64,000 nt of DNA, taken from Paraspadella gotoi (Eukaryota; Animalia; Chaetognatha). The stretch spans positions 26,897,932 to 26,961,931 of the forward strand of contig CM119266.1 in assembly GCA_051294375.1 (NCBI GenBank), in the 5' to 3' direction. The translations under genes were made by a program, and so were the position numbers. Positions 5,642 to 53,047 of this stretch are shown one piece after another. The notes beneath the pieces were generated by a model. That model saw only the letters and a list, made by a program, of their open reading frames with translations. It was not told the DNA's origin and did not search any database. Each line of letters begins with the position of its first letter. Position 1 is the stretch's first letter.

Positions 5642-8600
5642 ATGACGGAATACCTCGCGGTTCCGTTAAAGAAACCGAGCGAGGTGGATTTGGCGAAGCC
5701 GCTCAAACGGTTCGTGGAAGCGACTTACGTTTCCAAAGGCGAAACCATCGACCAGTTCCTTACACCCATCGCCGAGTTCAACAAGTTAAGAAGCAACGCC
5801 ATCTCCAAGTCACTGGACAGGCACGAGTCTGGACTGGAGGCTCTCTACAGGTGATTTAATTAAGGGAAGATCGGCCTTTGAAATTTGAGTATGTTGATTG
5901 GTATTAACTAATTAACCGTATTATATTCATTTCGTTTTCTACAGATATTACGATCAACTGGTCGCAACGGAAAATAAGCTTCCCATTCAGCCGGGACAGG
6001 TACTTTTGGGAAATTTGTCGCTAGTCATCAGATATAAATATTGCAAAGAATTATCTAAAATTAAAGTTAACAATTACTTCCCTAAATGCAATGCTGAGTC
6101 TGAGGTCACAATTTGGTTGCTGAATGTCAAACATCCTGAATTAATGAACGCTTGAAACTCATGACGTTAAAATAGTTTCACCGTTTATAAAGTGTTGGAT
6201 TGGTAGTTATTCATAATTAGTGCATTTTTTCAGATTAACATAACCTTTAAATGGACGGACTCTTTCGATCGCGGCGGTATTTTTGGGAAAGCCTCCATGT
6301 CGGTGCCGAGTGGCGCCTTCGAGAAGTTTTGTTGGATGTTCAACATCGCGGCGCTGCAGTCAGGCGTCGCCGTCGTGCAGAACCACGAGGACGACGAGCA
6401 GTTAAAGAACGCCGCCAAGTGAGCGTTTCTTCTTTGTCCTGGCGATCCCGCGATTCCGCCGCCCATTTTTATTTCCAGTTTTCCCTCCGTCTGCGCAGAT
6501 ACTTCCAGCAAGCCGCCGGCATCTTCGCCCACCTCAAGGACCACATGTTGTCTTCGTGCGGCGGGCAGGAGCCTACCCCTGATCTCCGTCCGGACTCTTT
6601 GCACGCCCTGTCCGCTCTCATGCTGGCACAGGGTCAAGAGGTCATCTGCCGGAAGGCACTCAAGGACAAGATGAAGGACTTGATCGTAGCGAAGCTTGCG
6701 CAACAGTGCAGCGACCTGTACTCCGATGCCATGAAGTTGGCGCAGCTGCAGTCGATTAGGGATCAGTGGCCGAGGGTAACGCGTTTTGACTTTAGTAGAA
6801 TTTAAGTGGGGAAATATCTAAGAACGTGTTACGAGGTGGATGATACCGACGGTGGTTTGTCCATTGCCATGTGTTGTTTGTGTCGATAAAAAAGTTGTAT
6901 CCTGAACAGTTTAAAATTTAAAAAATATTCTAATGTTTTCTTTTTAGGAATGGGTCCCAACCATGGCAGCCAAACAGGCGGGCCTCCACGGTCTGGCGCA
7001 GTATCATCAGTCTTGCGTTTGCAAGGGCGCCAATTCTTATGGCGAGGAGATTGCCCGACTCGATTACGCACACGAACTTTTCACCACTGCCAAGGAGCGA
7101 TGCAAGGATCAAGTGAAGTTTTCGGAATGGTTCGAAAAAGTCGATAAGGCCAGAACCGCCGGTGAGTTTTTGTGGTTACTGGTTAGTTTAGTGGTTCAAA
7201 CTTCAAAGTTGTAATAATTTGTTCATCCTCAATCAAAAAATCATGGATTTTAATCGATATATATTTTTCTTTCTTTAAAGCCAAAAAGGACAACGACTTT
7301 ATTTACCACGAGAAAGTACCGGAACGGAAGTCACTCAGCGCTATCGGCAAAGCGGTCATGGCGAAGGCACTACCCATCGCCAAACCCATGAGCCCAAATT
7401 CAAAGGTAAGTCTGAAGGTTGACAGGCAAAGTGAGCTTCTTTCTTTGTCGGATTTAAATAAAATGTTATCTAGTTTTTATTTTATTAAAAAGGACATGTT
7501 CGAAAACCTCGTGCCCCTTGATGTTCATAATGCGATGGTCGAGTACGATTCGAAGAAGGGCGGCCTCATTCAAAACGAGATCGGGAGAATGAGAGAAGCC
7601 ACTCAGCTCATGAACGGGTTAAGTCTATTTCCCCCTTTCGCTTTTTCCCTCCCAACTTTTTTTCTCTTTTAAATTGGGTTTTCAATAACAGAGTTCTAAA
7701 CTCGTTGAACCTCCCCGCCGCCATCGAAGACATAACCGGAACTTCCGTTCCTTCTTCGCTCTTGGAAAAATCGCAGAAGGTTCGACAGTTGGGAGGGATC
7801 GAATTCATCGACCGGCTCATGTCGGAGTTACCGGAGTTGTTGCAAAGGTTAGTTTCTCTCGAGAAAAGTCTACGGTATTTCGATTCACCTGATTCACCAT
7901 CATAACGATACCAAAGCACATGATCAACCCTTTGGTTTAAATTAAAGTTAGGATAAAGTTTGAATTCGAAATATTTGGCGAAAGATTCTTTATATACCCC
8001 CGTGTCCGTTCGCGAGTGACACCAAAAAAATCTTTACTATACTTTAAATATTTAATAAACAGAATTAATAAGTATATCATTAGTTGGAGAACTACTTGAC
8101 GTTTTTTATGTATAAGTTTTATTTCGTGTTTAATTCATTTACTATTCTTTGTTTAATTTTTTATCTAACACAGTAAAATTGGCAAAAAAGACCATTTTAG
8201 GCGTGTTCTTGATTGAATTTTTAAAAGATTTTATATCATACGAAATCCCAATTAATGGTCTAATCAATGGTTTATCTGAATTATCGTAATGTTGAGTAAT
8301 TTTCGAGTAATGATTTTTTATTTTATTTATTCGTCCAATTAGAAAAAAATGCTATCCTGGGCATGTTTGTGACTGTTTTGAGTAATTATTTTATATCGTA
8401 AGGATTCCCAGATAATTCTTAATTTAATAGTGTAAATGAATTTTAATAATTTTAAATATTTAATGAGTAATTAATTTATAATGATTTTATTTTTTTAAAA
8501 AGATTCAGTTATTTACTGAAGATGAAATTTAATGACCATTGAAAAAAAGTTGTTTTACATATGTAAATATCAAATTAATCTTATGAAATAAAAGTATAAT

Positions 8601-11600
8601 AAACGTCAAGTACTTTGCTACAGAATGAGGAAAAAAAATTTAAAAAATATTTATTCAATGAGAAAGGGTACACATTTTTTTGGTGTCACTCGCGAATAGA
8701 CACGGGGTATGACTTATATATGACTTTTTAACAGGAATGATGTATTGTACTCTAATCTTGCGTTGTATAGATGCTCCCTCTATATCCAGAAGACAACACT
8801 GACCTCCACCACCCAAAAATGAAATATTAGATATTATGGCAACGGGAGGATTACCTGTGATACCCGGGGCGAGGGGTATCTCACCAACTGGCGTTAGGGG
8901 CTGTGGACCCTCAGTGACCGCCTCCTATCACTGTATGTTTAGACCGGCTCCGTCACAATTAGGCCAGAACCGGGATACCCAGGAATTGAACCTGGGATGC
9001 ACAGTTGAAACAAGATTATTTAGCCTGCTCACCCATTGAGACGAGGCTGAGGATGGACAGCAGTGAGGCAACTTTAAGTTTGCTACCACAGGATCCCCCC
9101 ACCAGATTTCTCCCCAGGGGTGTCAATCCTGAGAAGATTCTTGAGAGAAGGTGTTGATCTCATTGCCATAAGCTAGCGCATCTGGTGCGTTACCAGAGTA
9201 GGGCATATGCGTGATATGCATAGTATGCATGAGTATGCATTGCATACTCTATGCGATGTAAGCATGTGTACGGTGCACGGCAGTTGTGTGTTCGAAAGTA
9301 GGGTTAACCACTTATGGGGCGGGGTATCTCACCAACTGGTGTAAGGGCTGTGGACCCTCAGTGACCACCTTCTATCACTGGCATGTTTAGACCGGCTCCG
9401 TCACAATTAAGCCAGAACCGGGATACCCAGGCATTGAACCCGGGACGCACGGTTGAAACGAGATTGAGCCTGCTCAGCCATTGAGACGAGGCTGAGGATG
9501 TTCAGCAATCAGCAGTGAGGCAGCTTTAAGTTGTGCTGCCACAAAATAAAGATAAATAAAAATAAAAAAAAAACTATATATATAGTTAAATAGGGGTAAT
9601 TTTGCAAATTTTCATATTTTTATTTTCTGTGTGGTATTAAATAAAGTCTACAATATGCCTAAAACTCATCAATACGAATTGAGTATAGTCCGCTTTTCCG
9701 TGGCCTAAACGTTGAACGGTTCCACCTTATGATTTTCTTTCCTTTCTATCCCAAAGAAGCGACAGGGCGCGTCTCCCGCGGTGGATGTAAAAAGACGTAG
9801 AATTCCCGCCACAGCAATCGAAACGACCAGACCCCCGGCGCAGAAAGCAAAAAGCGCTGCGTAAAAAGAGACGGTCGCTGCCATATGCCATATTCAAAAG
9901 TAAAAAACGAAATACTCGCCCCATATATCGGTGACTTGTATTCCCTGTGTCGATCCTTCTCGACATAAATGATATGGGTCGTAACCTACTCTGGGTATCT
10001 TCCACTTTTCCTGCATCTTGTCGAAATCTCCCGTTTGTTGTGAATAATGTACAAAGGCATTGAATAATCGCCGCAGAACGATGGCTTATGGAATAATCGA
10101 GGAGTTTAATGGTTGTAAGGCAACTGGCCAATTGATCTCTTTTTCTATTTACCGCGATGTCGCTGTTTGTTGAATATGAGACCCAAATCTAGTTTCCATT
10201 CCGTCTGATCGTCGATCAATTGAAACTCGCAGTTTATTAATTCTTGTAAACAAGTAAATTTGACGTTATGTATTATTTAAAATTAGTTGAATTTTTTTTT
10301 TCCCTTACCTCTTGTAAGAATATCGTTTAAAGAAGAAGACATGTAAACAAAGGCTGTTGAATTGCCTACCAATCTTTTCAGTTCCGGTTTCGTGCAATAA
10401 GTCGTCTTGCATTCCTTTTTTTCGGGGAAATTAGGGAAATTTGGTTCACTTTTATTTCTAGACGTTTCTCCTGCCCTCCTCTTACTGGAAGCATCCAAGT
10501 TTCGCTGAGCGATCGATACTTTTCACGCAATTTTATCACGCCCTCTCCACCGTGTTCCTGGAGACTTTTCCGAAAGGCGACGCCTTGGTTGAAGAAGTAT
10601 TTCATAGATTTGTCGTTGGTGAGCGCCTCCAAAGAGTCCAACGAACCCCGCATTTTCATAAGAGTTAGACTCGAATTTAACTCGGCGCTGTAAAGGCTGT
10701 TTGACCGGATGTTAAGGTTTTGTTACATTTTCAGAAAAAATACTACTATTCTTACCTCAAGAGGACAAGAGTAAACCACAGCCATACCAGTCCGGCGATT
10801 CGGAGGGGCAGGTTGTATAAACTCGCTGTTGCCTTCATTCCCAAAAGCGAGTAGGCGAAAAACCAGTAAACTTGTCTTTTTTCCCCTCCATCCGCTCTGG
10901 TGTTTTCTTGTGATATTGGAAAGGCCCGATTGATAAAATTAAGCATAAAAGTTTGTTTACTGCTTTAATTTATAGTTGACAATTTGCCGCTTTAGTTTTT
11001 AATTTTACCTGTTCCTTTATTTGGTGCCATTTTATGCAGAGCTGATACGACGAGGAAAGAAAACAGCAGCATGCCTATTATGGTGTACCATGTTATAGCC
11101 GCAAAGGGATAGAATATCAACTGCCACTTCGTACTCTCCGTGTTTGTTCTGAATATGTTTAAAAAATGAATTGCTGTAGAATGTAGTCGTTCGTTTTAAA
11201 CGTCTTACTTGAAAAGAATTCCGAGACCCGTTCGTTGTAAGGGAACGGAGAAGTCGATCACTGACGCTCTTTGCGAGGTCATGCTAAAAAATTGCAGGCC
11301 CAGGTCTGCGTCTCCCCGAGCGACTTCTCCGATCATGCCTGATCATTATAATTACATGTCCAATTATAATTATAGATCCAATTTAAGTTGCGCAAGGCTA
11401 ATCTATGTTTATAACCATTCTTACTCAATGTTCGCTCTTACCATCAAAGATCTTCGCCGTATCGTTGCTGCCGGTGGGTTCTCCCCAAAGGCCGTCTCTA
11501 GATTGGCGCAGTTCATATTTAAAGTCGCAATAGTGTGTCGTAAGCTCGTTAAATAAGTCAACGATATATCCGGCCAGGAGCGTGCCGTTTGCGTCTTTCA

Positions 11601-14600
11601 AACATGATGGGTGGTAAAATCGTAAGAAATTGCAACCTATCGATTTTTGTCTTTTTGTATAGAATATTAGAAGTCGAAGCTTTCGGGTCGTTAGTGAAAA
11701 TTGTAGAAACACACTCACCCCTCGCTACGTCCTCGCACGGGCGCGAAAAGAAGGACGCATCGTTAAGTTTGGTGCCCCATTTCTCGTACACAACGCGCAC
11801 AGACCCGTTACTGTCCTTGACTGCGTCGCAAAGTTTGACGAGGTGCTCAGGAACTTCTCTTTGAGTGGAGGCCCCACCTGAGCCTGCGAGGACGGTCAGC
11901 GTCGCGATTCTTCGCAATAAAGGGACGAACATGATCGATTAAATTTTCTTTATTCCCCGTTTTAGAAATCGGGAAATCCTTGACGAGTCTCTACGAATTC
12001 TTGAAGAAGAAGAGAGCTCGGACACACAGCTCCGCGATCAGTTCAAAGAGAGATGGACGCGGACAGCCTCTGGTCAGCTGACGGAACCGCTCAAGTCGGA
12101 AGGCAATAAGTACAGGTATGTAAAGAATAAAATGGCGGCTTTGTTGTTTTGTTCCCTGTTAGAATCGTTAAAAATTCCGATTCGGATATAAGGCAAAAAA
12201 GGCACTGTACGCTTCAAATAAATCGAAAGTGATTCTTTGGCAAACACCGTTGCGTACATATCCGCGCGGCAAAACTCTACCCATCTGGTTCTTTTTACCT
12301 CTTGTCGAGCGTGGCGTAGAATTACGACGCGTTTTTCTTTCCAAAGCAAACAAAACGATTTACTCTTTATTTCCTTGGTGTCTCTTTACATTTTGTGGTG
12401 TCAATTTATCCGCACCAGTTAGGAGCGTTGTCGTTTAGCGACAATTATTTTGTGATCCCCTTAATAACAAATTTCCCCGCCCCTTTTCCTCCGCACCCTC
12501 CCCTCTCACCCATTTTGACAGCCAAATCCTCAACAACGCCATCGCAGCGGATTCCATAGTCAAGACCAAGTATGCGGACAACAAAGAAGGATTCCTGCTG
12601 CTGTCTAAAGACGAGTCCAGCCTGAAGAGCAGCTTACCGTCGGCGTCGCCGGCCGCCGCGCTGCAGGGCTCGCCCGTGGTGGCCGGTGAGACAAAAGAAA
12701 GATTTCGTTTCAGATTCGAATCTGGAGGATTCTTCTTTTGCCTGTTTGTCCCCTTTTGTTTGTTTTTTCTTTGTTTCGGGTAGAATCTAGACTTTTATCG
12801 ACTTTTCTATGCGGCCCAGAGCTTCGCGGATACATGGAGCAAGTGGAGACGATGAAGGCCGAGCGCGATGTCGTCGAGGCTGAATTGAAGGCTTTGTCTG
12901 AATCAAGCGCCAACGCCAATATGAGAGAAACGTTTTTGAAGGTAAGTTGAGTGGGAGATAAACAAATATAAAAGCATTTTAAAACCATTCTTTGATCCTT
13001 TTCTGTCAAGGCGTTAGCCTCTGACGGGGCGCTAACTGGAACCGAGGCCTCTCTTTCGGAAACGGAGCTCGACAGATTGTTTCAGCCTTTAAGAGAACAG
13101 GTTAACGAAAGTTTGAAGCGCCAAGAAGATCTACTGGCGAACATCCAACGGACCAACACTCAGTTCAGTGAGCAGGTAGTTTTTGCTTTTTAATTAAAAA
13201 AAACTGAACTCTTGTCTTTGGTTAATACTTAATACCATGATGGGGGAAAAAAAATGGTCGCGGTTTGGAAAAGTCGGTTAATTTCATTGTCAAATATATT
13301 TTTTGGCTGGTAAATAAGTGTAATAAAAATAAATAACTGAATAAAAATATTTTTTCATTTTAACAAAATCTTTAATTTTCTTTTTTTTGGACTTGTTTGA
13401 TATTTTGTTCTGATTATAACTTTTATTAATACTCTACAATATAAAAAAATATTCTGGAGCATCAACAGCATTAATGTATTTTTAATTCCGTTATTTTTTT
13501 GACATATGAATTAAGATGGAGATGATGCAATAACTATTTGACATGAGACTGAGAAAAGGAAAGGATTTTAATTGTAATAAAAAAACTTAAAAATTAGTAT
13601 AAATAAAAAGTATAAATATAAAGATGATTAAAAAAAAGGAAGTATTTTTTTTTGGACAACTCATTTTCTTTTGCATAGAACTCTTGTATTTTTTGTCGTA
13701 TATAAATGAGACACAACTCATATAAATCACAAAAGGCCAAAGTTTATCGATTCTCACATTAAAATGCCGAAAAATAATTGGAAAGTAACCACGACAATTT
13801 TTTTTCCATCATTGTATTATAAATAGCTTATGTAAATTTATTGTTTTTTTAGAAATCATCCGGGGGCAACGAACGAGAAACAATGTTGAAGAACATATCC
13901 ACTGCGTTTGACGCTTTCATGGAATTGAAAGGAAATTTAGAGGAAGGAACCAAATTCTACAACGACCTGACGGAAATCCTTGTCAAGTATCAGTCAAAAG
14001 TAAGATTCGTTTACCCTCTGGTCTGATTACCGTTCGACTTTAATATGATTGTGTTTTGTTATTTGTATTTTAGGTTCAAGATTTCTGCTTTGCCCGACGG
14101 ACGGAGAAGGAGGAGCTGCTTAAGGACCTTAACGCCAACATTGCGAGACAACCGGCCTCCTCGGCCCCGAAGACGCCGGCCTATCAGCAGTCTACTCCTG
14201 CGGCAGGTGCGTTGTCCTCTCTCTTTTACCCTCGATCGTGGGTTGTTTCGCGGCCGTAAAACCTTATTTTCAAAGGATTGAGCCTTCAAGAATTTTGTTT
14301 TTTATCCCACCCAAAATAAAATAAACAACGTAAAGGCGATCGGCAGGCTCCGGAAAGGCCTCCTCCCCCTGCCCGACCCCCACCCCCTAACATTGCCACC
14401 GCAGGACCGGCGCCCCCGGTGCCAGCGAGGGGGTCATCGCCGGCGGGTGAGTCAGAGACCTTCCCCCTCTAATGGTTAAAAAAAACCTCGGTTTTTCGTT
14501 GATGATGTTAGCAGTTTTGGTTGGTGAGCGCGATCTTGACATAGCGATTAGTCGCTTTTTACGTATATAGATAAATGAAATGCTTAGAAATAGAATGGCC

Positions 14601-23651: not shown

Positions 23652-33297
<9,646 letters not shown>

Positions 33298-39000: not shown

Positions 39001-40138
39001 ATTTTATTACTATATAAAGTTGAAAAATTTTTTTTGAATTTTTCAATTTTTTTTGATAGATTTTGTTACATAAAGGTTATTAATACAAATTTTTTAAAAA
39101 ATTTTGTTTTATTGATAAAAATTTTAAAAAACTATAAAATTCAGCCAATGTCAATGATGATGATGATGATTTTTAAACGTTTTTTTTTGTTTTTAACCAA
39201 TTTCTTATCAAAATTTTAAAAAATTGTAGTACTAACTTTCATTTAATTTTTCAAGCTCTATAGGAATCCGTTCTTAAAAAATAAATTTTTTTAAAAAAAA
39301 TTTGTCATTTGTTATATATTAATAAATATTTAAAAGCTTCAGTGCAACAACCCAATGAACTAATTCAAAAAGTTGCATTGAAAATCTATTTAGTAATAGA
39401 AGGAAAAAAGAAATTTTTTTGAGAGAATTAGAAGTTATAAAAAGTGTTCAATTTTGGCCCGCCTTATTGTTTATGGCTGCATACGAATACGATAATACGT
39501 GATACTATTGTAACAACCGGGTTGCCTGTGATGGCCATTGGGATGGGGCATCTCACTGTTGGCTTTTAGGGGCTACCGATGCTTAGTGACGCCTCCTGTC
39601 ACTGGTGCGGTTACCCTAGGACGGTGTCGCTTTCCCAACGCAGAGGGAAGTCGTGAGGACTGTTGATGGATGGGACGCTTGGGATGGGGCCAATGGGATA
39701 GTGGATGTGAGGCGGTGTGAATATACTGCCACAATACCCTAATACTGACAGAGTAATTTAGCATTTTTCCCTATTCTTTCCAGCGAGGAGCGTCGGCAAA
39801 CGGAGTCTACTTCCGGTCAAATTCGCGTGGAACGTCAGATAATCATGGAATTAAACCTCATCGCGGAAGAGATCGAGGCGCGCCTAGATCGAGGGGATCG
39901 TTTTGACGCCGTCCCCGTTAGGACGCCGCAGCCGCTCCGCTCGTCCGGATCGGCGCCGGCGCAGACGTGGCGCCGCCTGGTTAGACGCATATCTTGGTGG
40001 ACGGGAAGGCGTCGTGTCCGCTCGGAAAATCAAGGCTGCGCCGTGGGCGGACAGGGCGCCCCGGCTCAAGACGATGGTGTCCCGGAAGGCCCATTAGCCA
40101 GGGCGGAAGACCGTATACAGAGATTCGAGAGTCCATAG
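36002..40138 (+). CDS. Uncharacterised Ser/Pro-rich disordered protein, ~6 exons, with a BH3-like helix in the last exon
   Basis: GC-rich exons near 36002-36406, ~37108-37397, ~38216-38402, ~38498-38633, 38705-38848 and 39784-40138. Only the last two were checked in frame. Confidence 0.55.
37497..38058. mobile_element. Degenerate MITE-like insertion
   Basis: TTGTCTT|GACTA...TAGTC|TTGTCTC; the AT-rich interior resembles 30500-30780 and 39000-39300. Confidence 0.5.
38870..39465. mobile_element. Non-autonomous Mutator-like element with a 9-10-bp TSD
   Basis: ATTGTTTAT|TAGGCCGGAACAGG...CCCGCCTT|ATTGTTTAT. Confidence 0.72.
39506..39733 (-). mobile_element. Solo LTR (subfamily A) with a decayed twister ribozyme and a perfect 4-bp TSD ATAC
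   Basis: ATAC|TATTGTAAC...CTGCCACA|ATAC. Clearly homologous to 26968-27222, but with catalytic G>C, T2 GC>AC and P4 disrupted. Confidence 0.85.
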
Positions 40139-41720
40139 GGATGTCACTCATTTGGTTTTTTCCCCCCAAGTTGACATTTTTAAAAGAGTTGCTGCTTTCG
40201 TTCGAATTTATATTAATACTATTATGAATATTGAATTAATGAATATTGTGGAGAGTAAATTGGAAGACTGGAATTTTTTCTTGACCTTGTTTTTATCTCG
40301 AATCCTTCCTTCAATAAGAAAGAGAGTGAGAGAGAGAGAGCTGCCCTCAAAAAATCTTTTATTCCTCCGAATTCTCAATTATTAATGTTTAACGTAATTT
40401 TTTTATTCCTTTGTCTCCCATTTTTTTATTGTATTCGTAGTATTCTGACTTAATCTCATCTTCGAAGTCTGAATCTCTTGCATTTCAGAAAACGATTACA
40501 TATTATTTTTTTTCACACGATTGGAAAGAATTCTCTGACCTTGGAATGCCGTAGGCACGCGTATTCTTTTCGAAGAATTTTTTTCCGTGTCATTCGCCTT
40601 TTTTGGTAATTGTACCGGTGCATTTGTGCTGTATATAATCTATTTTATATTGTATATATTTCGGCTGTCGTTTTCCTCCTCCGTTCGGATTTTAATTTAC
40701 GATAATGTTATCAGAGATTAGAGCGTAGAGGTAATATTATGTACCAGATTGTCTTGGTCTTTGGGCAAGTGTTCTCTCTCTACATAAATTTTCTAGCAAT
40801 TTAATGAAGTTTATTTTAGCAATTGGGAGTTTACTATTTTTCCGCGTGAATATTTCACATTTCCGCGATATTATACTTTTATTGCTGTGGATTTTAAAAA
40901 ACAATTATTTTAAAATGGTTCTTTTTCATTTAGGTTTTTCCATATTACACTTTGGAGCCCTGAATTCAAGATAGTTGGCTAGAAATGATTATTAAAAAAC
41001 TTTCTTCGTTTATTTGATAATTTAAAACTTTAATAATAATGAAACTCACCCCGCTAATTTAAATTTTTAATCGCTTCTGCAAAATAATCCGCTTTGTCCG
41101 TCTGTTGGCCACCTCTCGTTGATCAGTCAACCATTTAGAACAACTTATGTATGTAAAAAATACGATGTCTAATCGTCCGTCTGTGCAATTCAGCAGAAAT
41201 TTTGTAACTGGGTGAAAAATTAAACTGAAAATTTTATCTTATCTTACCTTAAATCGAATCTTTTTCACAAATTTTATATTAATAATAATAGATTTATAAT
41301 TAGCAGATTAGCTGATTATTCGGCTAAATTATCGCGGGCGTACGCGCGATTGTTCATCCTAACTTGTTTGGGACCTAATTAATTTTAGTTAAACTTGATT
41401 ATACTACTGTATGTAGTAGTGATGTGAAAATGAGAAAATTAAAATTTAGCATATAAAACATGAAAATAAAAGCCAATAAAAATACTTGGTAAATTTATTT
41501 TTTAATTTTATACATTATTGGGCACCAGTGAGCTATGTTTATATATAGTAAAAAGTATATAATAGGTTAAAATTTTTAGTTTTCCAGATATAACTGCTAA
41601 ATTTTGATTCTAAACTTTCACTTCACACTAGTATGTAGTTACTACTAGTTAAATATTTACTTTAGTTCACCCAAAGTGTTCTGAGATTTGAAAATAAATT
41701 AATTTCCCCTCACCACCGTA

Positions 41721-43748
41721 ATGGCTTCGCCGCTCAAAGACGCGTTTCTACCGCGTTCGGTCACCGCTCGAGAATTCACGACGACGCCCACCCTGCGGGG
41801 TCGCCGGCACGGACGGTCCGGCGGTGCCACCTCCGTCCCTGTCCCCTCTAAATCTGTTCCGGATTTAACCCGCTGTCTTCGCGTCTCGCGTCCCGCTTCT
41901 GGCCCCGCCCACTATTTGAAACAGAAGGAGATAGAGATGGACGACGGAGTTTCCCACTTGAAGCCAATTTATCACCGCAAAAACGATATCCTTTTCGTCG
42001 AATTTCCGACCACGGAAGACGCCAGTAAGGCCGCGAACATCCTGCGACAGTTCAAAGTCAGCGGAGTCTCGGCCACGATCGAGATGGAGAACTGCGCACT
42101 GCGCGAAAGCGGCGCGGCAGCGGGAGCGGCGGCGGCCGACGCACAGATGAAGCGAATCGACGCTTTGATTAAGGTTCACATTTGGAGAAACTTTTTTTTT
42201 GGTGATAAACTTGCAGATCATTCCATGGTGTCATTTTTTTCGAAGTCACATTATGACAATCCTCGCAAACCCGGAGGCGGAAGCGCATCTTTCAAACCGG
42301 CGAATCTGAAGAACCAAAAGGAATCTCATTCGAAAGCCAAAACTCGAGACGACGACGACGACGATCCCTTTAATCTTGGAGGCATCAAAGACCCCCGTGC
42401 GAACAGGGAACTTGATTCGTTGGCGCCGCGAAAGTCATCGCCTGGTTTAACGCCTGTTAATATGCTTTGTCAGTCTTCTCGTTCTAACCTCGGATCAGTT
42501 TCGGTCAATGCTTCCCCTGGCTCATACAGACCCTTAACACCGCGCGATAGCGATGGCGGGAACGGGAACGCGACCACTCCGATATTTCCCCCCAAATTGT
42601 CGCCCGAATCGGCTGAGAGAAACAGAGCTTTATGGCGCGGTGGGCCCGCGCAGCCTATTCCCCAACCGCCACCGACGTCGACGCCGCAGTTGGCAAAAAC
42701 GTCGACGCCGCGGTTGGATTCCACTTCGACCCCCGATTTTTCAGCCTTCGACGATCAATCGAAAACGGCGTTGCTGGGATTGGCAGATTTGATCGAGGCA
42801 CAGTGGCGCCGCTTGGACGCCTCATGGCAGGAGCTGGACCAGAGCCGACGCCGTCTCGATCAAGACCGTCAGACTTTGGAAAAAGAGCGCCAGACGCTCG
42901 ACCGAGAGCGAAGGGCGGTGGAGCAGCAGCGACAGGCGCTGGATCGGGATAGAAAATCGTGGGAGCGCGATCGGAGGTCGCTGGAGTCGGAGAAGCTGCG
43001 CCACAAAAACGACGCGGCCGTGGAATGGAAGAGGCTTTCAATGGAGCGTCGCCTCCTTCTGGAGCGAATTGTCGACGACGACGCTGCCGAATTCGGGACG
43101 CGCGACGTACGCAGATTCGACGATGCTAACCTCGTCATACATCGGGAGACGTGCCGTCCTATGGAGACCGCTGGGCCCGCCGCGCAAACCTTGGAGGACT
43201 TGTTGCGGTGGGACGATTATCCCGGACCTTCGCCGCTGACGCCGTCGTCGGCGAAGAATAAGGCGCCGATGTCGATGAATTTGCCGTCGCCCATATTAAG
43301 TCCCCGCGGGTCGACGCCGTCGCCGACGCCCCTCGACATCGTCCTCGATGAGTTGGATTTGCAGGGGTTCGAAGCCAAGGCGGCCGAAGCAGCCGTCGCC
43401 TTCCAATCGATCATCGATCGTAATAATAATGCCGCTTCGGGATTATGCGGCGGGGTCAATGAGAGTGAGAGTAAAGGGAAAGAGATGGAGGTATTAGAAA
43501 AAAAAGGGGTGGAAGAAGGGAAAGGGGTGGAAGAAACGGAGGTGGAAGAGAAAGAAATTATTGATCAGGGTGAAAGTGAAGGCGTGGCAAATTTTTTAGA
43601 TTGCAATGACGGCGGTCACAATGAGGAAGAAAAAGAGCAAAATGACGAGTGTTCAACCGATGACTTCGAAGTCCGCAAATCGGAACATCTGGGTGATGCC
43701 CGGGGGTCCGACGACCCTCCTCCGTTAACCGTTATCGATGACCCGTGA
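41721..43748 (+). CDS. Uncharacterised protein with a degenerate RRM, Pro/Ser-rich region, coiled coil and acidic tail (probable in-frame intron 42174-42245)
   Basis: 675-codon ORF; ILFVEFPTTEDASKAANIL is RNP1/helix-like; heptad repeats LDQDRQTLEKERQTLDRERR. Confidence 0.7.
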   Translation: MASPLKDAFLPRSVTAREFTTTPTLRGRRHGRSGGATSVPVPSKSVPDLTRCLRVSRPASGPAHYLKQKEIEMDDGVSHLKPIYHRKNDILFVEFPTTEDASKAANILRQFKVSGVSATIEMENCALRESGAAAGAAAADAQMKRIDALIKVHIWRNFFFGDKLADHSMVSFFSKSHYDNPRKPGGGSASFKPANLKNQKESHSKAKTRDDDDDDPFNLGGIKDPRANRELDSLAPRKSSPGLTPVNMLCQSSRSNLGSVSVNASPGSYRPLTPRDSDGGNGNATTPIFPPKLSPESAERNRALWRGGPAQPIPQPPPTSTPQLAKTSTPRLDSTSTPDFSAFDDQSKTALLGLADLIEAQWRRLDASWQELDQSRRRLDQDRQTLEKERQTLDRERRAVEQQRQALDRDRKSWERDRRSLESEKLRHKNDAAVEWKRLSMERRLLLERIVDDDAAEFGTRDVRRFDDANLVIHRETCRPMETAGPAAQTLEDLLRWDDYPGPSPLTPSSAKNKAPMSMNLPSPILSPRGSTPSPTPLDIVLDELDLQGFEAKAAEAAVAFQSIIDRNNNAASGLCGGVNESESKGKEMEVLEKKGVEEGKGVEETEVEEKEIIDQGESEGVANFLDCNDGGHNEEEKEQNDECSTDDFEVRKSEHLGDARGSDDPPPLTVIDDP

Positions 43749-44453
43749 GGATTAGTTATTGTATTGGTATTGATTATTGAACTTTCATAAACTGAGCGAA
43801 TTAGAAATGTTACTTGTCGTTTCCTGTTTAATCAACTTTTGTGTTTTGTTTTTTCCTTTTATAGAAATAGCGTTTCTAGTACTTTCGAGTTTAGCAGTTG
43901 TTTTGATCTGATGCTTCATCCCTCGATGGTGTATTTTTTTAGAATTAGTCATTTTCTTAACTCACGAAAATACGTGAACTGGTTTTCTTCAATTATGTAC
44001 ATTTTTCCTCCTGATTTTTTTGTTTTTTTGTCGAAGGCCTGTGTTTTTTGCTTTTCTATCATCCGAGCTGAAGGCTGGAGTCGGATCCGCTTACGTTTGT
44101 CCTACGTATTGATTACCAGTTACCCGCCTCAAGTTGTCCGTTGTTAACGTGAAATAAGAACTATACTAATCGATTCCATCGTATGTTTGGAAACAGAAAC
44201 ATTCAGTCTTAATCTGGTCTCTCAAAGGTGAAATGTTTCAAACAAAAGGCGAACGGATTGTATCTTACGTGCTTTGGTTATTGTGGTAAATTTTTTCCAC
44301 AAAAAATGAAAAGAACTCGTCTTTATACAGTTGTAAATTCTTTGTCCTCAATTTAACTTAAAATTTTCAGGCCCTCGTATAATAAAGTTAACATTTCAGT
44401 TTGACTGGTATCATATCATATCTTTTGTTTTTACCTGACAAAAGCCTGCTACC

Positions 44454-47400
44454 ATGTCTGACTGGGATGAAGAAGAAGAAGCCACCCCGGCTCCAGCCTC
44501 GTCTTCCGGAGGCGGATTTGGCGGATTTGGAGCTCGCAGTTTTGGATCTGGTGGAGGTTTTGGCGGCGGCGGTGGTGGTTTTGGTGGTGCTCCGAAAACT
44601 TGCTTCAAGTGCAAGGAAGAAGGTCATTTGAGCAGGGACTGTCCAAATGGTGGTGGAAGTGGAGGAGGCAACAATGCTTGTTTTAAATGCGGGCAAGAGG
44701 GACACCGGAAAAGCGAATGCCCTTCCGGCGGGGTGGGGGCAGCAACGCCTGCTTCAACTGCGGGCAAGAGGGACACAGGAAAAGCGAATGCCCACTGGCG
44801 GGGGGGGCAACAATGCCTGCTTCAACTGCGGGCAAGAGGGACACAGGAAAAGCGATTGTCCCTCTGGCGGTGGGGGCTCGAGGAAATGTTTCAAATGCCA
44901 GGAAGAAGGGCACATGAGCCGCGACTGTCCTAACTCTGGAGGCGGGGGTGGAGGAGGAGGTTTCGGCGGGTTTGGAGGTTTTGGAAAAAAGTCAGCCGAC
45001 GCGGAAAACTCCTCCGATTTCGCGGGATTCGGCGCGCTGACCACTAAATCCTCCGACTCTGAGAAACCATCCGGATTCGGGGGTTTTGGTGGTTTCGGTG
45101 GTTTGGGAAAATCGAACGACGGCGATAGTGGCGGCGACGGAGGTCGCGGGGGCAGCGGAGGAAGCGGCTGCCGCCGCTGCGGTGAAGAAGGACACTATGC
45201 CCGCGAGTGCCCCCAAGGGGGCGGCGATGACAACAAATGCCGTTATTGCAAAGAAGAGGGCCACATGGTCAAGGATTGCCCTACGCGTCCACCGCGGGAC
45301 GACGACAACAAATGTCGCTATTGTAAGGAAGAGGGACACATGGTCAAGGACTGTCCGACCAAGCCGCCCGACGACGGAAAGTGTCGTCGTTGCGGCGAGG
45401 AGGGACATAAGGGTTTCGAGTGTACCAACATCGAAGAAGGAAAACCGGGTGAGACGAGGAGAGAGAGGGAAGGGGGAGATGGTTGCTGTTGATTATATCT
45501 CGATCTCCAGGAGTCTTATTAAAAAAGGATTATAAAAATGAAAATTTAAATTTGTTCTCATAGTAAATTAATAATTTTTGTTATTATTTCAGGCATCGAC
45601 GGTAAGCCGGCCCCAGTGACATACATCCCAGAATCAGAAGAGGCCGACGAAGAGGCTCTGTTCAAACGCGGCTGCAACACCGGAATCAACTTCGACCGCT
45701 ACGATTCCATCAAAGTCGAAGTCTCTGGTTCGAAATGTTTTCCCCCTCTTTTTTTTATCTTCCCTCTCTTTTAATTTCCTGCTCTCAAATAAATGCTCCC
45801 CTCCCCCCCTGAAATCAACCTCTTAGGCCCCGATTCTACTAAACACGCGAAGATCACCTCCTTTGACGAGGCCGAGCTCTACGATCAGACCCGCGCCAAT
45901 GTCAAGCGCTCGGGCTACTCTCGGCCAACGCCCATTCAACGCTACGCCATTCCAATCATTAACGCAGGCCGCGATGTTATGGCGTGCGCCCAGACGGGGA
46001 GTGGGAAGACTGCAGCCTTCCTTCTGCCCATCATCACGGGGATTCTAAAAGACAACTTGCTGACAAGCTCATACCTCGACATTCAAGAACCCGCGGCACT
46101 GATTATCTCTCCGACCAGAGAGTTGGCGAGGCAGACGTATTTGGAGGCCAGTATTGTTTGTGAATTTCAGAGCCTTAATTCTGCAATTTCATTTTACTGA
46201 TGATTGTCTTCTTCCCACCTCTTGGAAAATGCTACTCGAACAATTAAGAAATGTTGGAAAGTCGCTTTTTTAAATAAAGGCTCTTACATTATAAACAAAC
46301 TTTTTCTCTTAACGCAGGCGGTGAAATTCACTCGCGGGACAATGGTCAAGCCGGTGGTCGTCTACGGCGGCGTCAGCGTTAATTATCAGCTGAGCAACGT
46401 TGGCAAGGGCGCAGACATCGTGGTCGCCGTCCCCGGACGCCTCCTGGACTTTGTAGAGAGGGGCAAGATTGGATTGAAAAAGATTAAGTATTTCGTCCTC
46501 GACGAGGCAGATCGCATGCTCGATCTCGGGTTCGAACCCTGCATCCGCAAGCTCGTTGGGGAGTTGGGGATGACTCCGAAGGTGAGACGATTTTAGTCAC
46601 CGGATGTGTACTATATATTCTTACATTGTTTTATATTTCTCCCTCTCTCTCTCCCTCCAGGAGGAGCGCCAAACGATGATGTTCTCGGCAACCTTTCCAG
46701 AATCTATACAAAGGATGGCGATTGACTTCATGAAGCCCTATTTGTTCATCACCGTCGGCATCGTCAGCGCCGCCAACGCCGACGTTAAACAGATCATCGA
46801 GCAGGTCGAAATTTTATCTTTGAAGCAAGACCATTGATCTTTTTTTTTTTTATCATTCGTGTTCCCCATTGTATCTCTTTGTTCCACCGTTATCTCTTAT
46901 CTTTTCCCCAGGTGACCCAGCAGCAAAAGCGTGATTCCCTTATCGCCGTCCTCGACGAGCACACCGGCGACAAGGCGCTCGTCTTCGTGGAGCAGAAGCG
47001 CAATGCCGACTTTCTCGCCTCCTACCTCTCGCAGACGGGCTACCCGACCACCTCTATTCATGGCGACCGGATGCAGCGCCAGCGCGAGGAGGCCCTCCGC
47101 GACTTCAACTCCAAGAAGAATCCCATTTTGATCGCCACTAACGTCGCCGCTCGAGGACTCGACATTCCTGACGTTAAGGTGCGGTGTTGGTGGTTGGGCA
47201 TGGCGGGATGGAATGCTCTGATGAGGGAGAGAAAAGTTGTCGCCGTAAAATTCAGTAAAGTGCGAAGACAACCGTCATATACAAGAAGTATAAACTAACT
47301 AACAAAAATTAACAAAAACTTCAAACAACCATGACAAGATGCGATAAAGAATTGTTCTTTTTCCATGTTCAAGGTCGTTATTAATTACGATCTGCCCCGC

Positions 47401-48025
47401 GATATCGACGAATATGTTCACCGCATCGGACGAACGGGCCGCTGCGGAAATGAAGGGAAAGCAGTGTCCTTCTTCGATCCCGACTCGTCGGAAGACATGG
47501 GTCTCGCTCGAGACCTCGTCCGCCAACTGAAAAACGTGCAGCAGGTAAGAGCGATTGGACAATTGACATTTTACGTGTACATTGCTGCCACATGGTTCTA
47601 CTTTTTACTGTGTAAAATGTGTACTAGACATTATACTAATTTATAGTTAGACTATACAACGTGTAAAGGGAAGAACACATAATTTTTTCTTTTCGATCCT
47701 TAAATTGAATTATTATTTTTTATCTAGGAAGTTCCGGAGTGGCTTAGTACCGTTTCCGACGGGTTCGTTGGGGGCGGCGCCGGTCGTAGCGGAAATAGGG
47801 ACATGCGCGGCCGAAAAGAAGTCGTCAGGGTAAGCTTAATATTTTTATTTTTTTTTACTATGAATCGAATTCTTAATTTTTGGAACGTCTTTTGTTTGAC
47901 AGGAGGATGCCTTCGGCGACGACTGGGGCGACGATAACAAAGGAGCCAACCTGGCGGCGACTAGAGGAAACGACTTCGGCGGCAAAGGCTTCGGCGCCGA
48001 AGAAGAGGACGACGAATGGGATTGA
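44454..48025 (+). CDS. vasa: Vasa DEAD-box RNA helicase with 9 CCHC zinc knuckles and FG repeats; two apparent 1-nt homopolymer frameshifts in exon 1
   Basis: MSDWD start, [48 protein letters not shown], and an acidic EEEDDEWD* end. Confidence 0.96.
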
Positions 48026-48589
48026 AGAAGGCTTTCGAGATCTCCGGAGGCGGCGATCCTGTTTTTGGGAGAGGCTCATTTAGGATTAGAGGAATTCCCT
48101 TCTCTGTAGTGAAAAAAATTGACTTTCTCCGTCCATTTTTTTGTCATACACTCGTCGTAGCAGCTTCGTCTTTGTTAGCTTGGAAAGTTGGTTGCTTCGG
48201 AGATCGTGATTCATTCCTTATTTTTGTTATTTGTGGCCGTAATATCTTGTCAAAAAACAGTGACATCGAGTGATTGAGTGATTTGGGAAGTTACGATTAC
48301 AGGGTGTTTCGGGTTAGAAACGTCAAATTCTAAGATGTCACATATTTTGGCATGGTGTTAAAGTTGGCTGTTTTTTGTTTAATTTCGTTAGTGATAATGT
48401 TTTAGTTTTCTTAATAAAAGTCCGTTTTATTCGTTTCAATTTTATTCCACTGTGATTTCGACCCCTGAACGCAGATACAGAACTACAGAAGTAAGAAAAG
48501 TTAGTGAGTTTAGATAAGATGGTATCACATTGGTTGTTCGATCAGCAGTCATATGGTTAGGGAGGGTTTAGGGTTAGGGTAATTAGGTA

Positions 48590-49991: not shown

Positions 49992-51692
49992 TTATTAGTC
50001 GGATCTGCTTTCAGCAGATCCCGACTCTATAATTCACTTTGTCAGTCCGTTGGTCCGTCCCCTCAATATTGTCGGGCACTCATTTATATCATGTCAGAAC
50101 ATTGAATTATGATAAATTATGCAAAAAAAAGATGTTTTTCCGTCCGTCCATCCATCCGTCCGTCCGTCCGTCCATCCATCCATCCATCTATAATTCACTT
50201 TGTCAGTCCGTTGGTCCGTCCCCTCCAATATGTCGGGCACTCATTTATATCATGTCAGAACATTGAATTATGATAAATTATGCAAAAAAAAGATGTTTTT
50301 CCGTCCGTCCTGTCCGTCCGTCCGTCCGTCCGTCCGACCGTCCCACCTTAGCAAAAAACACCAATTACTCGTGATTGGATGATGGATTGAATGAAATTTT
50401 GTGTGTGGGTAGGAAAGTGTGTGATTGAGCTGTATATTAAGTTTTGATGGAATCGTTCGAGTGGAAATGAGTTTAAATGGAAAAAATAAAAAAAATTTCA
50501 CTATTTGAACACCAATTACTCATGAGTGGATGGGGCGATTGACTTGAAATTTTGTATTTGGGTAGAAAAGTGTGTGATTAAACTGGAAATCCAGTTTCGA
50601 TGTAATCGTTTGAGTGGAAATGAGTTAAAATGAAAAAAAGTCATATTTACATGAAGTATTTTTACTTAAATTTACTCCTAATTATTATGTTTATTAAAAA
50701 TTGGATAGATAAATTGAAATGGAATTTTGTGTGTGGGTAGGAAAGTATGTGATAAAGCTGGATATAAATTTTTAGATGGAATTGTAGGAGTGGAAAAGAG
50801 TTCAAATTAGAAAACCAAAAGACACATTTATTTGATTTTTTTAAAGTTTCTCTCAATCTCTCTCTGATTGATTGATTGATTGATAGATTAAATGACCAAA
50901 TTATGCTAATTAACACAAATATGCCAGATGACCAAATTCTGCAAGTTGACCAAATTATGCCAGTTGACTAAATTCTGCAAGCTGACTAAATTCTGCAAGT
51001 TGACCAAATTATGCCAGTTGATAAAATTATGCCAGTTGACCAAATTATGCCAGTGAATAAAATTATGCCAGTTGACCAAATTATGCTGGTTGACCAAATC
51101 ATGTTAATTGACCATATTATGTCAGTTGACCAAATAATGTCAGTTGAACAAATTATGTCAGTTAACCAAATTATGTCAGTTAACCAAATTATGTCAGTTA
51201 ACCAAATTATGTCAGTTGAACAAATTATGTCAGTTGAACAAATTATGTCAGTTGAACAAATTATGTCAGTTAATCAAATTATGTCAGTTAAACAAATTAA
51301 GTCAGTTGACCAAATAATGTCAGTTGAACAAATTATGTCAGTTAATCAAATTATGTCAGTTAACCAAATTATGTCAGTTGACCAAATTATGTCAGTTAAC
51401 CAAATTAAGTCAGTAGACCAAATTATGTCAGTTGACCAAATTATTTCAGTTGAACAAATTATGTCAGTTGAACAAATTATGTCAGTTAAACAAATTAAGT
51501 CAGTTGACTAAATTATGTCAGATATTCCAAATTATGTCAGTTGACCAAATTATGTCAGTTGACCAAATTTTGTCAGTTGACCAAATTATGCCAGCTGACA
51601 AAATTATGTCAGTTGACCAAATTATGCCAGTTGACCAAATTATGCCACTTAATTATCGTAGGCAGATGCGACGTTGTTTGCTCAAACTTGTT
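49992..51692 (+). mobile_element. Non-autonomous Helentron (HINE/DINE-1-like) element with internal tandem arrays
   Basis: 5' subTIR GTCGGATCTGC with a nearby inverted copy, (GTCC)n microsatellite, ~160-bp and ~140-bp internal duplications, 3' subTIR GCAGATGCGAC plus short hairpin, TT flanks. Confidence 0.72.
50917..51647 (+). repeat. 18-bp minisatellite (CAAATTATGTCAGTTGAC)n, about 40 units
   Basis: Visible tandem array that generates the spurious QIMSV ORFs. Confidence 0.95.
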
Positions 51693-52975: not shown

Positions 52976-53047
52976 GGCGCAGTGGCCAAGTGGTAAGGCG
53001 TCGGTCTTGTAAACCGAAGATCGCGGGTTCGAACCCCGTCTGTGCCT
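52976..53047 (+). tRNA. tRNA-Thr(UGU)
   Basis: Cloverleaf GGCGCAG...CTGTGCC T; anticodon arm TCGGT-CTTGTAA-ACCGA; GGTTCGAACCC; T5 terminator. Confidence 0.95.

Follow-up and report, generated by a model that had tools for sequence, protein, structure and literature searches.

Helenus elements, miniature terminal-repeat retrotransposons (TRIMs; the proposed TRIMp3), are non-coding and shorter than 1.3 kb, with an interior between two long terminal repeats (LTRs), tRNA-type boxes A and B in the LTR, a 4-bp target-site duplication (TSD), a purine tract, solo LTRs and an inferred Gypsy-type helper (Kojima 2024, PMC10886601). Plant LTR retrozymes also have a non-coding interior, a 4-bp TSD, solo LTRs and segments at the positions of the PBS (primer-binding site) and of the PPT (polypurine tract); each LTR carries a type III hammerhead ribozyme, and the unit between the cuts, of about 600–1000 nt, takes up a fold in which the ribozyme is blocked (Cervera et al. 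2016, PMC4918200; PMC7761336), as reported for their circles (PMC4918200). Two kinds of retrozyme are distinguished, LTR elements of plants, which have type III hammerheads, and non-LTR repeats of animals, which have type I hammerheads (PMC7761336; bioRxiv 10.64898/2026.07.22.740005); the latter and the Penelope pLTR hammerheads are ribozyme repeats without LTRs, PBS or PPT, with dimer-type cleavage of weak motifs. Twisters of type P5 and the T-variants of RTE/Perere-3 lie at the 5' ends of non-LTR elements and tolerate a poor P1 helix (PMC8501958; PMC6765202). Here we describe an element at 8835–9543 (minus strand) of a 64,000-nt stretch of the chaetognath Paraspadella gotoi (GCA_051294375.1, contig CM119266.1, positions 26,897,932 to 26,961,931; hereafter the window, with positions counted from its first letter), in which a scaffold of the Helenus kind carries a twister-like fold in each LTR.

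We read this element as an aged copy of an abundant Helenus-like TRIM family whose intact copies likely work as a retrozyme through a full circle cycle, and give this reading a probability of about 0.5. That the element is a TRIM is next to certain. The preliminary description of this DNA, made from its letters alone, had claimed a 709-bp minus-strand element with direct repeats (TGTGG...CCATA), a 222-bp non-coding interior and a purine tract before the 3' LTR, and all of this was borne out: both LTRs start with TGTGG and end in CCATA, the interior (9312–9091) separates them, and the longest stop-free stretch in any frame of the whole element is 67 codons (Table 1). The TGG-initiated PBS that it proposed does stand 2 nt after the 5' LTR, but the segment matches no tRNA that could be tested. 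Its near-perfect 4-bp TSD is found at three of four letters (chance about 0.056, weak taken alone). In 222 aligned columns the two LTRs, 86% identical by gapped BLAST, differ by 15 substitutions, of which 6 are CpG-type; because of these differences and the loss of about 26 nt of U5 from the 5' LTR, this copy is not young. Penelope pLTR, DIRS and DNA-transposon identities were ruled out by the TGT-start ends, the perfect 4-bp TSDs of the family, the purine tract and a terminal inverted match of only about 9 nt.

Within-window BLAST led to two related LTRs, at 27222–26968 and 39733–39506, whose ends are as in the element. They are 92% alike, are 78–84% alike to the element's LTRs in aligned columns, and each has a TSD matching at four of four letters (chance about 0.004 each); the most fitting reading is solo LTRs from a sister subfamily. 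The element and both solos are antisense to the flanking exons, of ALIX, of rabaptin and, less certainly, of an unnamed open reading frame (ORF) at 39749. No empty insertion site was seen.

Nine sequencing runs of one organism, from three studies, contain the stretch; none is catalogued as RNA, and the best of them may be the window's own source; the evidence drawn from them consists of assembled contigs, with 8500–9900 and 9075–9335 each compared with four runs. Per run, 199–1857 contigs aligned to 8500–9900. Loose contig ends fall at the LTR termini (including 8834/8835 and 9079) with a flank agreement of only 0.45–0.68, as expected for many independent insertions. The locus itself is in one piece in all four runs, with single-locus depth across 9174–9281. 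Over the purine-tract block (9080–9170), single contigs reach depths of 4662 against 23.7 for the locus (run X5) and 5713 against 18.9 (run X8), roughly 200–300-fold, such ratios being rough and depth being no copy number; these contigs run on into another interior. A 577-nt record from run X6, with 52 other letters, spans an LTR, the greater part of the interior and another complete LTR, and is thus another full-type copy. Other copies keep the full U5 before the interior, as seen in this record and in a loose end at 9317 in run X1, and in one X1 contig the TGG segment (9283–9317) follows a U5 of the sister type and is therefore common to both subfamilies. This is a repeated LTR element with 4-bp TSDs and a further LTR-linked copy, and not the 5' end of a non-LTR element, an alternative that the preliminary description had raised. 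Contig joints that go back along the element were rejected as circles, since diverged LTR copies fitting partly to each LTR explain them.

Twister elements in type-P5 order, claimed for each LTR, are present and conserved in the family; as also claimed, the 5' LTR retains pseudoknot T2, the 3' LTR has lost it, and the predicted cuts at 9389/9388 and 8941/8940 lie 448 nt apart. All core positions of the twister-P1 consensus occur in the 5' LTR and in the solo LTR at 27 kb, barring the element's first L4 adenine. They stand in the right pairing relations, both pseudoknots included: the UAA, the GC, the C-G base of P3, the U...AGC loop and the GA before T1'. Pseudoknot T1 has two of three pairs in the 5' LTR and three of three in the 27-kb solo, and T2 is present in both; the conserved core and pseudoknots are incomplete in the 3' LTR and the 39-kb solo. 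A P5 helix of 4–6 bp, identified by eye, closes the motif and forms in the minimum free energy (MFE) fold of the 27-kb solo.

A twister descriptor matched two loci in the window (the 5' LTR and the 27-kb solo) against nine loci in 300 dinucleotide shuffles, none with two, and a stricter one matched one locus against none in 60 shuffles, both having been written after the sequence had been seen. When the fold was laid over the four LTR units, 85% of cells paired, compared with 24–44% in slid controls, and two-sided changes occurred in 4 of 24 pairs (one in P2, one in T1, two in the linker). A model made from the four units matched these and nothing else in the window. Pattern matches elsewhere (six in viral and five in metagenome contigs) were set aside as chance on the basis of their context and of BLAST against the three window elements, and the ORF lists of those contigs held no retroelement. 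On either strand of the element, we found no complete hammerhead core by eye and no match to an Rfam hammerhead family.

Of all checks on the fold, the comparison with the runs is the most independent. Among the 40 of 161 variant rows seen in it, six fall inside the 5' twister, four at paired positions and two in the P3 loop. At 9406 (P2), 9374 (P3), 9351 (T1) and 9344 (P4), where this copy has a mismatch or wobble, the common family letter creates a Watson-Crick pair and accounts for about 98% or more of the depth in each of the four runs. The letters at all four paired positions thus restore pairs, and the family keeps the twister fold better than the 8835–9543 copy does. None of the rows seen touches the catalytic G, the U^AA, T2 or the AGC of L4. 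Judged by sequence, the family quite probably has an active twister. In this copy, both LTRs have one T1 mismatch and one P2 mismatch. Three departures from the common letters are shared by both LTRs; inheritance is the probable origin of two that are not CpG-type, 9406/8958 and 9374/8927, and the T1 mismatch may be inherited or reflect independent CpG decay. The ribozymes of this copy are probably weak or dead, and it has probably lost the capacity for excision of the 448-nt unit.

The helix P1 of a twister does not form here within one copy. In its place is an 8-nt linker that pairs solely with a second copy of itself, in a duplex (−10.3 kcal/mol in the element's subfamily and −11.0 in the sister); the two sequences differ and neither folds alone. 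Such self-complementarity suggests that the ribozymes of the two LTRs may cut as a dimer. Palindromic linkers are also typical of retroelement dimerisation signals. Active twisters with an altered P1 have been reported (PMC8501958).

Boxes A and B lie upstream of the ribozyme in each LTR. Their joint pattern occurs at four places in the 64 kb: a real tRNA-Thr gene, the 5' LTR, the 27-kb solo and one other. Box A (TRGCY) and box B (GGTTC) are as in Helenus (PMC10886601), with the YGG end of box A being AGG here; ARAGORN called no tRNA at the boxes. A run of four T is absent from the 709-nt element and from both solos, and the first lies 15 nt past the element's end. The two solo relatives, the boxes and the self-complementary linker were absent from the preliminary description.

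We propose that, in an intact copy, RNA polymerase III (Pol III) would start near box A of the 5' LTR and read through the element. The ribozymes of the two LTRs would pair via their linkers and cut at the sites corresponding to 9389/9388 and 8941/8940, and the released 448-nt unit would be circularised by a host ligase into a circle holding one whole LTR. A presumed Gypsy-type reverse transcriptase and integrase would then copy the circle, rebuild the LTR–interior–LTR layout and make the 4-bp TSD. Cutting in both LTRs would leave no terminal repeat, so that ordinary strand transfer would fail and a circle would be needed; since the circle would carry a single ribozyme, dimer-dependent cutting would not reopen it. 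The fold of the 448-nt unit, in which the ribozyme is blocked, is better than those of its shuffles (z −2.64; 2 of 100 do as well). More tentatively, we suggest the specific form of an animal LTR retrozyme with a Pol III promoter and a dimer-only twister, in which swapped P1 strands would yield unit-length RNA and a circle that does not reopen.

Several observations weigh against the full cycle. Rfam gave no twister at its gathering score. The preliminary description had proposed a check with the twister-P5 model, which has no match at E<=10 in 8700–9700 or 26900–27300; the only twister model matched at that threshold is twister-P1, whose scores of 15.3 bits in the 5' LTR (E 5.4) and 15.2 bits in the 27-kb solo stand against a cut-off of 67.2 bits. 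The first L4 adenine is C in both LTRs of the element and A in the 27-kb solo. Covariation comes from four sequences in two lineages and so reflects at most four events, and the evidence from the runs covers 40 of the 161 variant rows, leaving 121 out of account. A 9-bp hairpin that competes with T1' wins in the MFE fold. T1 is highly sensitive to single mutations (PMC9901934); if its mismatch was inherited, the parent moved with a crippled ribozyme, which counts against obligatory cutting. The absence of a T4 run would allow Pol III read-through, but by itself it carries no significance (13% of shuffles). Helenus elements have a PBS complementary to the 3' end of a tRNA; the segment at that position here fits neither the window's tRNA-Thr nor the searched Helenus supplement text (0 matches). 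No helper element was seen, though no search aimed at one was made.

An unlikely alternative is that the twister is active and only makes the 3' end of a linear RNA, with the 5' copy folded away and no circle formed. Between the Pol III start and the cut lie roughly 100 nt, which would then act as an ordinary R region in strand transfer. A T4 terminator in the LTR would stop Pol III in the 5' LTR, and none is present, which suits such an RNA, as does the existence of a blocking hairpin. The PBS segment can also pair over the cut region of the sister subfamily (22 of 500 and 3 of 500 shuffles as good), but in the element's own subfamily no significant 5'-specific block was found (46 of 500 and 237 of 500). 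At insertion, moreover, the ribozymes of the two LTRs are identical in sequence, and joint cutting is the better match for the self-complementary linker. As a separate observation, the segment 9291–9312 is nearly complementary to 27075–27090 (minus strand) and to the same region of the 39-kb solo, and not to the cut region of the element's own LTRs; pairing of this kind might serve self-priming or blocking.

Less probable still is a captured cassette, in which the tRNA head and the twister entered the LTR as a SINE-like (short interspersed element-like) or RTE-derived unit, the family moves as an ordinary TRIM, and cleavage is dispensable or only trims read-through transcripts. Insertion of a SINE into an LTR has been proposed as the origin of Helenus (Kojima, PMC10886601), twisters are known at RTE 5' ends, the ribozymes are damaged in three of the four LTR units of the window, and the T1 mismatch is common to both LTRs of the element. 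Against this, subfamilies only about 78–84% alike in aligned columns have retained their pairing and catalytic positions, and the common family letters are the paired ones, pointing to selection on the fold.

It is very unlikely that the LTR comes from an autonomous Gypsy family whose own LTR holds a twister, with the 709-nt element as an internal deletion derivative. The purine-tract block does continue into other upstream sequence in a high-depth relative; the loose ends upstream of the block, however, are 13–186 nt long, the interior of the copy from run X6 is of similar length to that of the element, Pol III boxes are suited to short RNAs (an argument made in PMC10886601), and a gag-pol mRNA would sit badly with a ribozyme that cuts. 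A twister look-alike with another role, such as a packaging or dimerisation signal, would agree with the Rfam scores far under the cut-off and with the palindromic linkers, but we give it the slimmest chance of all, since all printed twister-P1 consensus positions occur in the right pairings, both pseudoknots included, and descriptor matches are rare in shuffles.

Two further features of the element concern its U5 and interior. A U5 hairpin after the ribozyme (8850–8880 and the 27003–27030 region, minus strand) is kept by eye in both subfamilies, with one two-sided change, and forms in the computed fold. The first letters of the conserved 3' interior block, at about 9170, are the reverse complement of the bases that end the LTR, resembling a U5-leader stem; pairing of 9171–9149 with the U5 end is not significant (66 of 500 shuffles as good).

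The window is gene-dense animal DNA. A Pfam scan of 11 pieces gave matches in 7, to ALIX, rabaptin, a DEAD-box helicase, plexin and a ligand-binding piece of a glutamate receptor. The element sits in an ALIX intron, between plus-strand exons at 7531–7902 and 11943–12188, and downstream of a receptor-like gene nested on the minus strand of that intron. A separate multi-copy repeat, possibly a miniature inverted-repeat transposable element, adjoins it (Table 1).

Table 1. Coordinates of the TRIM at 8835–9543, its relatives and neighbouring features in the 64,000-nt window
Feature	Position	Strand	Remarks
Complete non-coding miniature LTR retrotransposon (TRIM)	8835–9543	minus	709 nt = 231 + 222 + 256
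5' LTR	9313–9543	minus	231 nt; about 26 nt of U5 deleted
3' LTR	8835–9090	minus	256 nt
Left TSD	9544–9547	minus	3 of 4 letters match 8831–8834
Box A, tRNA-type, 5' LTR	9469–9480	minus	pattern scan; 3' LTR copy 9024–9035 has one change
Box B, tRNA-type, in T-arm-like hairpin, 5' LTR	9430–9440	minus	3' LTR copy 8982–8992
Twister fold, type-P5 order, 5' LTR	9336–9415	minus	P5 9415–9412/9339–9336; P2' 9406–9403; G9402-A9401; T1' 9400–9398; linker 9397–9390; predicted cut U9389^A9388; P2 9386–9383; T2 9382–9381; P3 9380–9374/9365–9359; P4 9358–9355/9346–9343; L4 9354–9347
Self-complementary linker replacing P1	9390–9397	minus	8 nt; cannot fold alone
Second twister fold, 3' LTR	8888–8967	minus	predicted cut 8941/8940; T2 lost, T1 mismatched
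TGG-initiated segment at PBS position	9291–9310	minus	starts 2 nt past 5' LTR
Variable interior	9174–9312	minus	single-locus depth in 4 of 4 runs
Conserved 3' interior block including purine tract	9091–9170	minus	common to high-depth relative with different upstream interior
Purine tract	9115–9094	minus	ends 3 nt before 3' LTR
Solo LTR, sister subfamily	26968–27222	minus	255 nt; perfect 4-bp TSD; boxes A and B; twister with T1 and T2 intact; in rabaptin-like intron
Second solo LTR, sister subfamily	39506–39733	minus	228 nt; perfect 4-bp TSD; decayed twister with changes in catalytic G, T2 and P4
Multi-copy repeat adjoining the element	7998–8110 and 8508–8830		inverted arms 7998–8037/8668–8707; high contig depth 8641–8828; loose ends at 8709
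Glutamate/ionotropic-receptor-like gene	about 9700–11940	minus	nested antisense within ALIX intron
DEAD-box gene with many CCHC zinc knuckles	44439–48273	plus	helicase domain by Pfam; presumably Vasa-like
Tandem repeat array	50893–51652		unit based on 18 nt
tRNA-Thr(TGT) gene	52976–53047	plus	
Long single-exon ORF	58–972	plus	304 codons
Long single-exon ORF	41703–43748	plus	681 codons; no Pfam match

Set beside the described systems, the element is new in its ribozyme class and its dimer-type linker; the scaffold is of the Helenus TRIM kind and the cycle is like that of plant LTR retrozymes, and the 'candidate new system' of the preliminary description was therefore an overstatement. From Helenus it differs in LTR ends, TGT...ATA here. 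It departs from plant LTR retrozymes in its animal host, its twister, its tRNA-type boxes, its 448-nt unit and the lack of a tRNA-Met PBS, with cleavage and circles being only predicted here. Its twister shares core nucleotides, helices P2–P5 and both pseudoknots with the type P5 and RTE/Perere-3 forms, and differs in lying inside an LTR, in having the linker for P1 and in scoring below Rfam thresholds. Integrase-type ends and 4-bp TSDs set it apart from animal non-LTR retrozymes and Penelope pLTR hammerheads. We infer that it is retrozyme-like; it lies outside the retrozyme definition, having no hammerhead and a circle that is only predicted.

In the searched text of PMC10886601, 'twister' has 0 occurrences and 'ribozyme' appears only in a reference title. 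In its supplement, the wasp LTRs Helenus-2_SyJa-LTR and Helenus-2_SyUm-LTR contain, by eye, a type III hammerhead core with three stems and complementary loops I and II. It lies directly behind the tRNA boxes, the same slot as the twister here with another ribozyme, and goes unmentioned in the paper. None of the 22 places listed for twister-type loop words in the supplement is twister-like by eye, in a text whose line breaks can hide motifs. Our literature search, with most subscription papers outside its coverage, returned no account of an LTR that contains a twister, of a Helenus ribozyme or of a natural twister acting as a dimer.

If the proposed cycle is true, this twister-bearing LTR family of an animal would breach the plant/animal division of retrozymes on both sides. 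The ribozyme class would be interchangeable, and twisters would gain a second defined role beside that at RTE 5' ends. Together with the wasp Helenus hammerhead, it would mean that Pol III TRIMs have repeatedly taken up unrelated ribozymes, leading to a circular-RNA cycle. As the motif lies far under Rfam thresholds, similar ribozymes may be widely missed in repeat libraries; in a family as abundant as this one, any circles should be detectable.

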